From IMG/VR virus record IMGVR_UViG_2974602183_000001, positions 32,001 to 96,000 of that record: a stretch of 64,000 bases of DNA, one strand, 5' to 3'. The position numbers and the translations under genes were made by a program. The DNA comes from a virus. Taxonomy: Duplodnaviria; Caudoviricetes. Below are positions 3,184-32,950 of this stretch, in pieces (position 1 is the stretch's first letter; every line of letters begins with the position of its first letter). The notes beneath the pieces are model-generated. The model made no database searches. It was not told the DNA's origin and saw only the letters and a program-made list of their open reading frames with translations.

Positions 3184-3702
3184 TTATCTCTTGCCGTTCT
3201 TATAGGCGTCTAACAGGTTTTCCGAGTAAGTACCTACTGCCAGATTGTTTAAATTGTTATTTAGTTTATTATCATCTAGGTGCCTACATAGTAGCCCTTT
3301 ATCCAGATAATCGGGATCTAGGTAAGTTAACGCTAACAGACAGTGAACTGGGATAGGTGCTCTCTTCCCTAATATAGTAGCAGCTACTGTTAAATAACCC
3401 TCTTTATTAATGTAAGGCTCTAACAACTTTCCGCCCTGAAATGCGGTAGAAAGGGAGAGCACTTGACCAGACTTATTAATGTATAGTCCTTCTGTGCCTG
3501 GAACGAGGTCCCAGTCCTCTAAATTAATCGGGTTAGCTAGGCCTTTTAACTGGCTAATACTCTTTTTATGCCACTTACCACAGTCTGATTTTATCTTTAC
3601 TCTTCCATCCTTACCAACTACCAGCTCCTTACCTGAGTGTAAATTAGTTACTGTAAGGGTACTGTGGTTAAACTTATACTTAGAGTACCCAGGTATATCC
3701 AT
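3184..3702 (-). CDS. HNH homing endonuclease (NUMOD4/HNH type)
   Basis: GYLTV...VHCLLALTYL...CRHLDDNKLNNNLNNLAVGTYSEN motif. Confidence 0.88.
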   Translation of the reverse strand: MDIPGYSKYKFNHSTLTVTNLHSGKELVVGKDGRVKIKSDCGKWHKKSISQLKGLANPINLEDWDLVPGTEGLYINKSGQVLSLSTAFQGGKLLEPYINKEGYLTVAATILGKRAPIPVHCLLALTYLDPDYLDKGLLCRHLDDNKLNNNLNNLAVGTYSENLLDAYKNGKR

Positions 3703-5275: not shown

Positions 5276-5323
5276 TGTATTTTTGACCTAGTACGGAGCT
5301 GTAGCGGCTAGGTCAAAAATACA
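5276..5323. repeat. perfect 16-bp inverted repeat
   Basis: TGTATTTTTGACCTAG / CTAGGTCAAAAATACA with 16-nt spacer. Confidence 0.9.
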
Positions 5324-5328
5324 CTTAA

Positions 5329-5510
5329 TTAAAAGACCGGTTAGTGCTGACGTGCCTACCAAGACAATTGAACAGATTCACAACTCACAGAGAATGGCCA
5401 AGTCCATAACAGAGTAACAATTACACAATAAATATAAAAGCGCATCTGCGTGAACGACACTCATTCTTTAATAGTAAGCGGTAGAACCCCAACGCTAACC
5501 AATCTTTTAA
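5329..5510 (-). ncRNA. hairpin RNA with YUGUN-repeat loop in 3' region of coiled-coil gene
   Basis: ~21-bp closing stem whose G-U pairs form on minus strand; loop carries 7 YTGTN units at 7-8-nt period. Confidence 0.65.
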
Positions 5511-5517
5511 AACTTAC

Positions 5518-6048
5518 TTAGGCATCAATAAAGCCAAACTCTACGAGAATGTTGCTAACCATTTCTGGTAACTCTACTTTACCGTTTCCGTTGATGCCTG
5601 CGCATGAATCCTTCACACGCTGAATCTGTCGAGTAAGGTTACGAACATCGGCTCGCACTTTGTCTTGAGATTCATTAGATACGCCTGGGACGTACCTTAC
5701 TTTGCTGTCTTGGTAGGAGGTAGTCGTTGAGACGTCACCCACACGAGACATGTTTTGTTCCATAAACTGCTTCTGCTCAGTAAGCATTGCAATTCTGAGG
5801 GTACGTTCATTAATACCGTTTTCGATATTAAAGGCCGCCTTCAAGTCGCGTAAAGCGAACTTGGCTATTAGGAGTTTGTCCATCTTCTCCACTGCTGCAC
5901 TGATAGCGACTTCTGCAGCTTTGTAGGCATCCTGACGAGTTCCTTGCGTCACTCGTAGTTGCATCCCCAATCGGTCTTTGATGAACTCGATTTCGTTGTC
6001 AATTTCAGACTCTACTCGTGAGACGTCTTTAACTGGCATTTTACGCAT
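5518..6048 (-). CDS. coiled-coil protein, DIP1984/DUF6847-like architecture
   Basis: GGAG SD; long amphipathic helices; pattern RL..Q.RV.QG ... K.RYV..VS...Q..VR.L.RQI..V.D.....N...VEL recalls DIP1984 family (by eye). Confidence 0.6.
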   Translation of the reverse strand: MRKMPVKDVSRVESEIDNEIEFIKDRLGMQLRVTQGTRQDAYKAAEVAISAAVEKMDKLLIAKFALRDLKAAFNIENGINERTLRIAMLTEQKQFMEQNMSRVGDVSTTTSYQDSKVRYVPGVSNESQDKVRADVRNLTRQIQRVKDSCAGINGNGKVELPEMVSNILVEFGFIDA

Positions 6049-6073
6049 TTAGTTTCTCCGTTGTTATAAGTTT

Positions 6074-6169
6074 CACTTTGATGAACTATACTCTAGGAGT
6101 CCGACGACCCGTAACTTGCCTTATTCAGGCCATACTTGGCAACCGTATCAAAAAGCATAGCTCAAAGTG
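6074..6169 (-). ncRNA. structured ncRNA / 5' leader candidate (96 nt)
   Basis: CACTTTGA/TCAAAGTG plus GCTATGCTTT/AGAGTATAGT closing helix; internal TTGCC..GGCAA. Confidence 0.6.
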
Positions 6170-6183
6170 TCCTCAAACGATTC

Positions 6184-7228
6184 GGCCTGAGATTACAGCC
6201 TTAAATGTCCGGTCTTTCACTACCCGTATGTCTTAGGGCTTATCCACCAGTTCTCACTGGTATCCGAACAGCGGTGCAATATTTAGACTCCATGCTGTGG
6301 GAGTGTCATACATGTTTACTCTATCGTTCCATTCCTTCCGAGCTTGCGACCCGTTCGCATCCGCTAAGACGCTAAATTCTTTTTCCGATAAAACATATCA
6401 GGCTTGCGACCTTCTATGCTCCTAGTTCCTTGAGGGGGCTAGGAATTAACCGCCTTTCAACATGTACCGTGGGGCTCTTTTGCTTTTGTAAGTTAGTTGT
6501 ATGAAAACCAAATATTCATAATTACTTCTTTAAGCATTCCCAACTGAGTGTCCCCACAGGAGCCCGTTACCTTTTGGATAACCGGATATTCCACTCAGTC
6601 ATGTCGTTCACGTTCCCGCTACTAAACTCCGTGCAAGATTTAGATTCTTCAACCCAACCTTGTTTTGGTACACACCGCACTTACATGACTGCTCGCACTA
6701 ATGTGTTATACGTTAGACTTTCGTTCTTCTTCCAGAGTTGCATCGAGGCTGACGATTGCGGTCGTCATTAGGGTCTTGGTTATCCCCCTATGTATCCACC
6801 GGCATACCTTACCGATGAACCTCGCTCTAGTTTTCTGACCTTTTCTCCCCTTTTCTTTCGGGAAGCCCTAGAGGTAAATTATATCTAGGAGTCTCGTACT
6901 TTTATCCGTGAACCGTCCGAAGACCGGAGCCACCCTGGGCGGGTAATGACTTTCCTACCTTTCGATAGATTATTCTAACGACCAGATACAGCCGAAAATG
7001 TACAAGTACACTTTTGTGATTCCCCGTGCGCTGCCTTTCGGCACGGTTTATAGCGGACTTGCTAGAATCCAGAAGTGAACTTCCGAAGCTCCTAACCCTA
7101 AGGTGTCGGCAGCTTTATATATTCCCATTACCAGTGGGCTTCGACCGAGAGTACATATACTAGGCACTCCGTGGGTAGGCTCTTGCTAGCCATCCCATAC
7201 CAGAACTGTTGCAAGGCTCTGGTGTCTC
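6184..7228 (-). ncRNA. giant structured ncRNA, GOLLD-like (~1.05 kb)
   Basis: no >=60-aa ORF on minus strand; many GNRA/UUCG-capped hairpins and long-range helices; directly downstream of tRNA-Gln; ends GGCTGTAATCTCAGGCC. Confidence 0.7.
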
Positions 7229-7233
7229 TCCTT

Positions 7234-7310
7234 TGGCGGCGGGTGGGGGATTCGAACCCCTGCGACTTTGGAATCAAAATCCAAGGTTTTACCAATTAAA
7301 CTAACCCGCT
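7234..7310 (-). tRNA. tRNA-Gln(TTG)
   Basis: TTGGA-TTTTGAT-TCCAA, GCCA. Confidence 0.9.
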
Positions 7311-7316
7311 ATTGTT

Positions 7317-7396
7317 TGGTCTAAGGCGAGGAATTGAACCTCTTCAAAGCTCTTTCGATACTGTAAACAGTAGCCTGAACCACAGGCGCACCCAAG
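7317..7396 (-). ncRNA. tRNA-like RNA with non-canonical anticodon loop
   Basis: D arm GCCTG-TGGTT-CAGGC, TACTG-TTTA-CAGTA arm, GAGG-TTCAATT-CCTC T arm, ACCA. Confidence 0.65.
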
Positions 7397-7400
7397 AAAT

Positions 7401-7450
7401 TGGAGGGGCTGGATAAAACCCGACTGGTCTAGAAATCCAATCACACCCCC
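7401..7450 (-). ncRNA. CCA-ended mini tRNA-like RNA (50 nt)
   Basis: GGGG/CCCC-T-CCA acceptor, GATTGG/CCAGTC arm. Confidence 0.5.
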
Positions 7451-7599
7451 TAATTTGGGAGGTTTTACGTACCTCGATTAAGGCTGTCCTCCTGCGACAA
7501 GCTCAACGACTGTTCTGACTTTACAACCGACAGCTCGGTTCTGCCCGCATTATTGAGTTAACAGCTATCTTGGGTGTTGCTGAACTAACGTCTCAAAAT

Positions 7600-7677
7600 T
7601 GGTCGGCACTGTAGGACTCGAACCCACGACCCCTCCGTCCCAAACGGAGCGCTCTAACACTACTGAGCTAAGCACCG
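7600..7677 (-). tRNA. tRNA-Pro(TGG)
   Basis: CTCCG-TTTGGGA-CGGAG, CGG 5' end, ACCA. Confidence 0.92.
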
Positions 7678-7682
7678 GTATA

Positions 7683-7739
7683 TGGTGCGTTGTTACCCTA
7701 GTATCCTCGAAGGCTTATTTCTGAATCTACTAGCAACGC
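7683..7739 (-). ncRNA. CCA-ended hairpin (acceptor-stem mimic)
   Basis: GCGTTG/CAACGC-A-CCA plus CTAGTA/TACTAG helix. Confidence 0.55.
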
Positions 7740-31585: not shown

Positions 31586-32950
31586 ATGAGTATAAATACT
31601 CAAGCAATAGTGCTAAAGCTGTTATTAAGTTCCTCATCAGAATCTGACCTAGTATTAGAGTTTGATGCAGCAAAAAGCGAGTATTTCTCAGACTCTTATC
31701 GTAAAATTCGCCATCTAATAGCGCAGTTCTACGAAAAATACAATAAGCTTCCAAACCTTACGGAGCTACGGTTAGCCAATAACCGCTCCGGTAGCGTGCT
31801 TGCAACTTTAGATGCGTTAGCGAATACAGAACTGCCTGATGAGGTGGAACTGTCCCTAGCTATAGAAGCACTAGAGAGTGAGTACGCACAACAACTATCA
31901 CTAACAACGATACAGAATCTACTACTTAAAGACATTACTCTATTAAACGCTCAAGAAATTACTGAAAGGCTCGCGGAAATCCAAACTCACGTTTCGGACT
32001 CGCTAGACGCTAGTGATAAGGTATTTACTGGTAATAAACTATCTGCTTTCCAATCCACTGAGGATTCAGAGGCGGAAACGGTGCTTACTAGCATAAGCCC
32101 TAGATGGGACTTTGAATACGGTGGTTTACGTAGAGAAGATTTACTATTGCTCGGAGGTAAACGAGGTTCTGGTAAGTCAGTAATGTCAATGAACTTTGCA
32201 GCAAATCAGTACAGGGATGGTAAGATATGTCCGTACTTCACTATTGAGATGCGAGCAGGGGAGACGTTCCAAAGATTCATGGCTAATCTGTCAGGTGCAG
32301 ACGCTATGGATTTACGTAATAATGAAACTTCTGGCACTGATATATTTAAACTTCTAGTTACTCGCGCAGCGATGTTCGAGGACAGCTATGAGGTACTATC
32401 TGGGTTTCTAGAGGAAATGGAAGAGCCGTGTGAGAAAGGTTCTGACCTAGTAGGGTTCGAAGCATCGCTAAGAAATCTACCAGAAGTCACCCCCTTCATT
32501 ATAGTAGACGATTCCCAACTTAGGCTCGCCTCCGTGGATGCACACTTGGGCGCTATAGTGTCTAAGTATGGGGAGCAGGTTACGGCCTGTGTTGTTGACT
32601 ATGTTAACCAAGTTATCGTGGAAGACCAGTCGTCTATGTATGATTGGAAAGACCAGTTAGTAGTGGCAAAAGGTTTGAAGAACCTTGCTCGTAAACATGA
32701 GGTAGCAATGATATCTCCTTACCAAATCAATAATGATGGTGAAGCAAGACTTTCCCAAGCTATCCTAGACCCCGCAGATTACGCTATGGTTATTCACGCG
32801 TATGAAGAAGCGGATATAGTCGTATTGGAAGCCACTAAGGTACGTTCTATTAGTAATGTTACTTTCGCTATGCCTATGGATTGGCAGTGCTTAAGAATAA
32901 AGAACGTAGACTTGACCAAAGAGTTGTTGGAAGATATGCTTGAAAAATAA
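31586..32950 (+). CDS. D6: replicative DnaB-like helicase (T5 D6)
   Basis: GKRGSGKS, FTIEM, VVDYVN, SPYQ. Confidence 0.9.
   Translation: MSINTQAIVLKLLLSSSSESDLVLEFDAAKSEYFSDSYRKIRHLIAQFYEKYNKLPNLTELRLANNRSGSVLATLDALANTELPDEVELSLAIEALESEYAQQLSLTTIQNLLLKDITLLNAQEITERLAEIQTHVSDSLDASDKVFTGNKLSAFQSTEDSEAETVLTSISPRWDFEYGGLRREDLLLLGGKRGSGKSVMSMNFAANQYRDGKICPYFTIEMRAGETFQRFMANLSGADAMDLRNNETSGTDIFKLLVTRAAMFEDSYEVLSGFLEEMEEPCEKGSDLVGFEASLRNLPEVTPFIIVDDSQLRLASVDAHLGAIVSKYGEQVTACVVDYVNQVIVEDQSSMYDWKDQLVVAKGLKNLARKHEVAMISPYQINNDGEARLSQAILDPADYAMVIHAYEEADIVVLEATKVRSISNVTFAMPMDWQCLRIKNVDLTKELLEDMLEK

Follow-up and report, generated by a model that had tools for sequence, protein, structure and literature searches.

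What is encoded by a kilobase of DNA that carries no recognizable gene inside a phage tRNA cluster? The question is raised by a minus-strand stretch, 6184-7233, of the 64,000-nucleotide (nt) segment analysed here (the window; positions 32,001 to 96,000 of the IMG/VR virus record IMGVR_UViG_2974602183_000001, which has 112,106 bases). The stretch lies between the gene for tRNA-Gln and an open reading frame (ORF) of 176 amino acids (aa) at 5518-6048, inside the cluster formed on the minus strand by the 18 tRNA genes that ARAGORN finds in the window. An earlier note on this DNA had described over 1 kb without a credible ORF, and the longest ORF overlapping 6184-7228 on either strand indeed has at most 65 aa. 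The note suggested a large structured RNA of ~1.05 kb, either resembling the phage RNA GOLLD or belonging to a new class. The analysis leaves little doubt that the minus strand of the window from 6184 to about 7019 encodes a GOLLD RNA (Rfam family RF02032) of ~836 nt, located in the tRNA cluster of a lytic T5-like Vibrio phage. The supposed ~1.05-kb RNA resolves into this GOLLD and a separate leader of 214 nt. The RNA is an ordinary-sized GOLLD; it is neither unusually large nor the founder of a new class.

The whole window was scanned against Rfam 15, and GOLLD was the sole match other than tRNAs. Model RF02032, which spans only the conserved 3′ region of GOLLD, aligned with 6184-6601 (minus strand) over model positions 1-416 of 416, with a score of 189.9 bits (E 6e-52) against a gathering score of 150 bits. 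The likeness to GOLLD suggested in the earlier note is borne out by this cmscan search. At the homologous site GOLLD scored above the cut-off in all five GOLLD-region relatives scanned, and in Vibrio phage 70E37.1 (MW824425.1), which belongs to a sister clade, a GenBank non-coding RNA feature is already named GOLLD.

As the model covers the 3′ region only, the extent of the 5′ region was taken from homology. Similarity to the clade of phages 70E37.1 and D239 begins at 7017-7019 (blastn, MAFFT), and the 5′ region is therefore set at 418 nt and the whole RNA at ~836 nt. The layout is a 418-nt 5′ region, then a hairpin with a variable A/U-rich linker, then the conserved 3′ region, as follows.

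6602..7019, minus strand: GOLLD 5′ region, 418 nt (homology limit against the 70E37.1/D239 clade; predicted covarying fold; covariance model R2)
6541..6601, minus strand: first hairpin of the Rfam GOLLD model, taken as P14 (cmscan alignment; covariation)
6478..6540, minus strand: A/U-rich variable linker (unpaired in the Rfam model)
6184..6477, minus strand: core of the conserved GOLLD 3′ domain, to the end of the Rfam model (RF02032, the 189.9 bits being those of the whole of 6184-6601)

The segment 6478-6540 is read as the GOLLD variable linker because it diverges strongly even between the window and its close relative VspSw_1 (alignment A2, columns ~877-930). At the other end, conservation between the two phage clades runs ~30 nt beyond the end of the Rfam model (6150-6183, minus strand; GAAT..TTTGAGGA..CTTTGAG), and no terminator-like hairpin was seen in 6150-6183; the true 3′ end, judged from this conservation, may therefore lie slightly past 6184.

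The fold of the 5′ region was examined on an alignment of six sequences (four of the window clade, 70E37.1 and D239). RNAalifold placed 114 pairs in the region, 29 of them with compensatory changes on both sides. Among 684 cells of the alignment 95.8% were paired, compared with 33-42% when partners were slid; pairs changed on both sides fell from 29 to 2-5 in the slid controls and averaged 15 in shuffled ones, and none of 500 shuffles equalled the observed value. The first predicted hairpin pairs 7014-7007 with 7002-6995. The outermost helix drawn by RNAalifold (alignment A4, columns 37-43 with 437-443) was discarded as an artefact of the cut at 6595; it clashes with the Rfam hairpin.

All the local hairpins listed in the earlier note are found on the minus strand at the positions given there: the tetraloops GCC-GAAA-GGC (7033-7042), CTATC-GAAA-GGTAG (6955-6968) and GTC-TTCG-GAC (6915-6924), and GCAA loops at 6340-6352, 6400-6412 and 6751-6766. 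The long-range helices proposed there fared unequally. In the Rfam GOLLD model, 6543-6550 and 6592-6599 form the first hairpin's stem, which shows covariation when the two phage clades are compared (TGACTGAGTG/CACTCAGTTG vs TGACCAAGTG/CGCTTGGTTA). Together with the 29 compensatory pairs of the 5′ region, this covariation shows that both halves of this GOLLD are under structural constraint at the level of base pairing. The pairing of 6596-6604 with 6683-6691 is an exact 9-nt complement that overlaps the Rfam hairpin; it is invariant in four of the six sequences and reduced to 7 base pairs, uncompensated, in the other two, so that the complementarity stands and the helix is neither supported nor refuted by covariation.

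The pairing given in the note as GAGCCCCAC with GTGGGG proves to be real in the form CUGUGGGG/CCCCACGG. The strand CUGUGGGG (6559-6552) occupies the internal loop of the first hairpin and finds its complement in CCCCACGG (6474-6467), immediately ahead of the next helix. At the same site the 70E37.1 clade has GUCGGAA/UUCCGAC, and other GOLLDs have GACGGAC/GUCCGUC, GGCAGAC/GUCUGUC, CUCGAAG/CUUCGAG, UGAUAAGC/GCUUAUCA, GGCAAUG/CAUUGCC, AAAUAGC/GCUAUUU and GGUGUAG/CUACACC; GUGGGG/CCCCAC is a further example among the covarying GOLLD pairs. In 16 of 31 distinct GOLLD sequences the longest complement falls at this site (contexts read by eye); 15 of the 16 adjoin a conserved purine-rich motif (for example GCAAAAG or GGAAAAG), and the sixteenth is 70E37.1. 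An unanchored statistic of complement length, with means of 8.39 in true and 7.25 in mismatched pairs, failed to separate the two, and the case rests on helix position together with sequence. On that footing the pairing of the internal loop with the pre-helix strand is family-wide in GOLLD.

Relationship of the 5′ region to that of other GOLLDs was assessed with a covariance model (R2) of its last 105 nt, searched over 30 other GOLLD loci from IMG/VR. At E<=10 exactly two matches were obtained, at loci L158 and L162, both on the correct strand and stopping 1-2 nt short of the Rfam 3′ region. Like the window, L158 and L162 are members of the low-scoring GOLLD subgroup, and they have a motif in common with the window just before the first hairpin. 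With sequence-only comparison (nhmmer against 117 IMG/VR loci) the 5′ region gave no match, the leader none and the 3′ region five weak ones; other GOLLDs are too diverged for this kind of comparison. An exact search with a 20-mer from the start of the 5′ region returned only VspSw_1 and one unrelated contig (L127), which carries no GOLLD and was set aside as a chance match. The low-scoring subgroup, IMG/VR records of 110-250 kb (L158, L160, L161 and L162), has longer matches, of 458-476 nt. In these four, as in the window, the first hairpin is closely preceded by the motif TTAGTAGGGA..AACCGAA, and in L160 and L161 the 5′ region begins right after a tRNA and opens with a hairpin.

A number of observations weigh against the identification or limit how far it reaches. 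In the alignment to RF02032, 22 positions (11 pairs) are non-canonical in the window, the other pairs of the model being formed, and the score falls in the lowest group of GOLLDs (185-199 bits) as compared with 250-326 bits in 24 of the 32 records above the cut-off. The fold of the 5′ region was counted on the same six sequences that defined it, and these represent about two lineages. The R2 matches reached 22.9 bits (rough E 0.014) at only two of 30 loci, so that homology of the whole 5′ region to canonical P1-P13 is no more than a possibility. In four RNA libraries of environmental metatranscriptomes, from three studies, assembled contigs cover 6180-6472 and 6553-6998 with 90-98% identity, and these contigs show no ends, strand or level and may come from DNA carry-over, so that they are not proof of transcription; oligomerisation and function are, for this RNA, a matter of inference only. 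What the contigs do establish is the presence of close relatives of this GOLLD in RNA libraries. Positions 7039-7233, the tRNAs and ORF 5518-6048 had no contig from any of the four runs, a lack of cover that carries no weight.

The phage itself can be placed from its relatives. Vibrio phages VspSw_1, ValDsh2, valsw3, X1 and SJ1 (Demerecviridae, Pogseptimavirus) are 91-93% identical over 6161-7319, and ~280 records of V. crassostreae phages of the 70E37.1 type are 71.6% identical over 6163-7017. Judged from these similarities, the source of the window is a lytic T5-like Vibrio phage (Demerecviridae) with its nearest relatives in Pogseptimavirus, in agreement with the T5-like assignment of the earlier note.

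If the GOLLD begins near 7019, what is the DNA between it and the tRNA? The note had placed the start of the RNA a few nt after the CCA of tRNA-Gln. The CCA is encoded and adjoins the non-coding stretch, but the GOLLD-homologous part starts ~215 nt further on. The intervening 214 nt (7020-7233) form a conserved leader, X, adjoining tRNA-Gln. It is an element separate from GOLLD and is also present in Vibrio phages without GOLLD. Three features are distinguished here, the X core extending slightly into the GOLLD 5′ region.

7234..7310, minus strand: tRNA-Gln (UUG) with encoded CCA, directly 5′ of the non-coding kilobase (ARAGORN; Rfam tRNA 54.6 bits; sequence reading)
7084..7233, minus strand: 5′ part of leader X, of weakly defined structure (alignments A1, A3 and A7; tRNA-Pro to tRNA-Leu gap in GOLLD-less Vibrio Demerecviridae)
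7003..7083, minus strand: X core, a three-way junction (covariation; covariance model R1; fold z-score -4.1)

Window positions 7011-7125 match 37 Vibrio phage records without GOLLD-region homology (Ceto/BBMuffin type, PVo5, pVp-1, VPG01). Five of these were retrieved (Skimmer, PVo5, VPG01, Ceto and pVp-1, of which pVp-1 has no tRNA annotation), and in each the matching segment shortly precedes tRNA-Leu; the gap holding it comes after tRNA-Pro, or in PVo5 after another tRNA. A scan with the Rfam model detected no GOLLD in the whole records of Ceto, Skimmer, VPG01, pVp-1, PVo5, JSF10 and T5, the positive controls being the window's own genome and 32 of 49 IMG/VR records. The 5′ part of the leader gave 28 pairs with RNAalifold, 15 of them compensatory, with a folding term of just -9.9 kcal/mol and an uncertain alignment.

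The X core is better defined. Its closing helix 1 (~17 base pairs) joins 7081-7064 with 7023-7005, helix 2 joins 7063-7061 with 7054-7052, and helix 3 joins 7046-7040 with 7031-7024 and includes the GCC-GAAA-GGC hairpin. On seven sequences it comprises 26 pairs, with all of 181 cells paired and 8 pairs compensatory, compared with 34-48% pairing and at most one both-side-changed pair in slid controls. A covariance model (R1) was built from eight sequences, leaving out 70E37.1, D239 and JSF10. It recovered the core in D239 (27.5 bits, E 2e-5) and 70E37.1 (23.3 bits, E 5e-4), in both directly 5′ of GOLLD, and in JSF10 (75.9 bits), where all three helices show further compensatory changes and a 61-aa ORF stands between the core and tRNA-Leu. 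It found no X core in T5 and no additional copy in the 64-kb window. Over the 30 other GOLLD loci it gave one chance-level match (L139, 12.4 bits, E 1.3), downstream of GOLLD. Copies with the conserved fold are listed below by locus.

L132, 742-825: X core
L003, 3479-3561: X core
L131, 699-782: X core
L004, 1253-1336: X core
L311, 604-683: X core
L002 (MW824425.1), 3346-3427: X core
L008 (OZ196063.1), 3345-3426: X core

The core lies upstream of GOLLD in all six Vibrio GOLLD phages examined, and throughout the Vibrio Demerecviridae its nearest 3′ neighbour is always tRNA-Leu, GOLLD or a small ORF with tRNA-Leu behind it; the RNA to which it serves as 5′ neighbour is tRNA-Leu in most genera and GOLLD in two clades. 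It matched no Rfam family at E<=1 in the window, nor at E<=10 in three other phages. A 16-base pattern of the core was found in 30 viral and at least 119 metagenome stretches, of which two already-known phages remained after filtering with a hidden Markov model; this single metagenome pattern scan added no X-core diversity. The X core is thus a candidate RNA motif outside any family with which it could be compared, restricted to Vibrio Demerecviridae within the data searched. In 70E37.1 a tandem second copy of ~19 nt (GGAGTACACTCCTGTCT...; L002 3427-3446) precedes the 5′ strand of helix 1, giving two alternative partners for one 3′ strand.

Where the core meets the GOLLD, the 3′ strand of helix 1 (7023-7005) shares positions with the first predicted hairpin of the 5′ region (7014-7007 with 7002-6995), and the two folds are therefore mutually exclusive. 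Helix 1 covaries, pairing AGUUCACUUCUG with CAAAAGUGUACU in the window clade and AGUUAUCUUCUG with CAAAAGAUAAUU in GOLLD-less phages; the stem of the GOLLD hairpin is invariant and its loop varies. In the window the energies are close: the core on its own folds at -27.8 kcal/mol, and 6990-7090 folded with the GOLLD hairpin reaches -29.0 kcal/mol. In 70E37.1, Ceto and JSF10 the minimum-energy fold contains the full helix 1. From this overlap, the covariation of helix 1 and the near-equal energies, we infer that core and GOLLD are carried on one precursor, with the boundary between them set by processing or refolding at helix 1. It is possible, and offered here tentatively, that the core acts in cis on the adjoining stable RNA, for example as an endonuclease entry site or as a folding switch that sets the mature 5′ end, and that the 5′ strand of helix 1 has changed in GOLLD phages so as to pair with the first nucleotides of GOLLD. 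If this were so, the maturation of a giant cage-forming RNA would depend on a portable leader module.

The same junction allows a rival reading, that the mature RNA is longer than a canonical GOLLD and retains the X core (~900 nt, from 7083) or the whole leader (~1,050 nt, from 7233) as a 5′ extension that is part of the functional particle. No promoter- or terminator-like site is seen from tRNA-Gln to GOLLD, a scan of 6184-7233 having given nothing usable; the sequence kept between the GOLLD clades opens with the 3′ strand of helix 1, it is helix 1 that covaries beside an invariant competing hairpin, the core precedes GOLLD in each of the six Vibrio GOLLD phages, and it is kept in full in the minimum-free-energy fold of 6184-7083. 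This reading is nevertheless rather doubtful. The core occurs without GOLLD in Ceto, Skimmer, VPG01, pVp-1, PVo5 and JSF10 (all six records GOLLD-free), it adjoins GOLLD at none of the 30 other loci, where its single weak match is downstream, the 70E37.1 clade has no counterpart of 7084-7233, and the RNA without X already equals the env-38 GOLLD in length. Nor is the X element likely to be a DNA-level signal, either a promoter for the downstream stable RNA or a protein-bound inverted repeat. The cores of VPG01 and pVp-1 do read TTGACT-17 nt-TATAGA, by eye a good sigma-70 match, and those of Ceto and PVo5 CTGACT, 17 nt, TATAAA. The spacer is however 14 nt in the window clade and in JSF10, the promoter scan is blank at that site in the window, and a start ~7 nt past the -10 box would lie within the covarying helix 3. 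The fold is also kept by 70E37.1 and D239 with different sequence, and helix 1 keeps G-U pairs (columns 78/155, 82/151 and 94/138) that pair on the minus-strand transcript only, which argues that the core pairs as minus-strand RNA.

Two further explanations concern the stretch as a whole. It would be very improbable for the region to code, wholly or in part, for small proteins, as it is annotated in many D-series Vibrio phage records. There are open frames of 31-65 aa, and OZ-series records annotate 5-6 'hypothetical protein' coding sequences over the homologous stretch, but no frame exceeds 65 aa, the substitutions are those of compensatory base pairing and not codon-wise, close relatives are separated by insertions and deletions that are not multiples of three, and the strong covariance-model match explains the conservation. 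The short 'hypothetical protein' calls lie under the RNA match in ~280 Vibrio phage records (OZ19xxxx), 5-6 in each; these are probably over-calls, because in D239 (L008 2430-3320, OZ196063.1), the one such record scanned, GOLLD scores above the Rfam cut-off there. Another large structured RNA in place of GOLLD (ROOL, a group I or II intron, RNase P RNA or transfer-messenger RNA) is barely credible; it would have the size and the tetraloop-rich look in its favour and nothing else. With 4227 Rfam families searched over 5300-7700 at E<=1, the models of these four kinds of RNA gave no match, ARAGORN reported no transfer-messenger RNA, and beyond GOLLD and two tRNAs only two chance-level matches appeared, tRNA-Sec (22.7 bits, outside the region) and SNORD59 (22.5 bits, on the opposite strand).

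The reading preferred here, a GOLLD of ordinary size preceded by a separate leader, suggests a way in which the RNA could be made and used. From its context, GOLLD would be transcribed with the neighbouring minus-strand tRNAs and then freed from the precursor by endonucleases, those of tRNA processing or others. Cleavage on the 5′ side may occur within or beside the closing helix of the X core, which overlaps the first GOLLD hairpin. By analogy with the env-38 14-mer and the Streptococcus agalactiae 12-mer, 12-14 copies would then self-assemble into a closed RNA-only cage in which, as in the solved homologues, the 5′ regions would form the caps and the 3′ regions the ring, with the linker pointing inward. 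Cage assembly of this particular GOLLD is considered moderately likely on that analogy. It is suggested with low confidence that the cage or scaffold is made alongside the phage tRNAs and either contains or shuts out a partner from translation, for example a tRNA or the ribosome.

Atomic structures of GOLLD have been available since 2025, and the present instance adds nothing categorical to them. It places GOLLD in cultivable lytic T5-like Vibrio phages, in the VspSw_1/X1/SJ1 clade and in the 70E37.1 clade. Close relatives without GOLLD (Ceto, pVp-1 and JSF10) have the same tRNA-cluster backbone, so that phages with and without the RNA make up a natural set for comparison, and a workable genetic system is available for asking what the RNA does. 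In GenBank, the feature derived from Rfam covers the 3′ half of the RNA only. The X core is a candidate new RNA motif that may bear on the excision of GOLLD from tRNA precursors.

Two neighbouring features of the cluster were also noted. The 176-aa ORF at 5518-6048 (minus strand) sits between GOLLD and tRNA-Leu and has only a weak PHROG match (phrog_6405, E 0.0066); no Pfam family matched it. It looks like an insertion specific to the window phage, because homology to VspSw_1, X1 and SJ1 begins only at 6161 and in X1 the GOLLD is ~110 nt from tRNA-Leu. A gene-free gap of 289 nt (7311-7599, minus strand) separates tRNA-Pro from tRNA-Gln; ARAGORN called no tRNA in it, and it folded no better than shuffled sequence (z -0.84). 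Its 3′ end, 7319-7398, scores 22.7 bits with the Rfam tRNA-Sec model, under the cut-off of 47, and looks from sequence like a decayed long-arm tRNA.

How does this RNA compare with the systems already described? ROOL is, like GOLLD, described as large, phage-associated, located near tRNAs and able to form RNA-only cages; it differs in sequence and fold, and the Rfam ROOL model has no match in the region at E<=1. In GOLLD a 5′ region of ~400 nt, less well conserved, is followed by a variable linker and then by a conserved 3′ region (PMC12286853). Structures have been solved for the env-38 14-mer (PDB 9MEE) and the S. agalactiae 12-mer (9L0R) (PMC12990946). Cage formation and adjacency to tRNAs are on record, and ribosome binding and linker-embedded tRNAs have been reported (PMC12286853, PMC12990946). 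The GOLLD of a Lactobacillus brevis prophage is reported to accumulate in lytic growth and to be dispensable for phage production (PMC7567579). A compilation of 806 GOLLD sequences from phage and bacterial genomes may already include the present phages (PMC12286853). Among the matches listed for GOLLD and Vibrio in the literature, the only works on Vibrio phages are the ICP1 paper, which makes a transcript-length comparison only, and its preprint; prior publication on GOLLD in Demerecviridae may still exist. The family, its phage and tRNA context and its occurrence in the sister clade were thus all previously on record, and the window contributes one more member.

Within the family, the window RNA belongs to the low-scoring subgroup (185-199 bits), alongside those of a few IMG/VR phages of 110-250 kb. 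Its 5′-region sequence can be aligned only within the Vibrio T5-like phages, apart from the last ~105 nt (R2, two of 30 loci), and the RNA has the X-core three-way junction in front of it, an arrangement found at none of the 30 other GOLLD loci. Compared with the GOLLD of 70E37.1 (MW824425.1, Demerecviridae, host V. crassostreae), to which it is 71.6% identical over 6163-7017, it shares a T5-like tRNA region and an X-core-like fold directly upstream; 70E37.1 differs in its flanks, with tRNA-Ile downstream and small coding sequences upstream, and in having no counterpart of 7084-7233, and its GenBank feature spans just the 421-nt Rfam part. Compared with RF02032 and the solved examples, the window RNA matches the full 3′ region above the curated cut-off, has the same order of a 5′ region of ~420 nt, hairpin, variable linker and 3′ region, keeps the pairing between internal loop and junction, and is phage-encoded within a tRNA cluster. 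Of similar dimensions is env-38, described as an RNA of 833 nt with a 5′ region at residues 1-420, a 3′ region at 421-833 (413 nt) and a disordered linker at 497-538, which forms a D7 14-mer cage by cryo-electron microscopy (PMC12286853). The window GOLLD, at ~836 nt, divides into 418 + 418 nt where env-38 divides into 420 + 413 nt.

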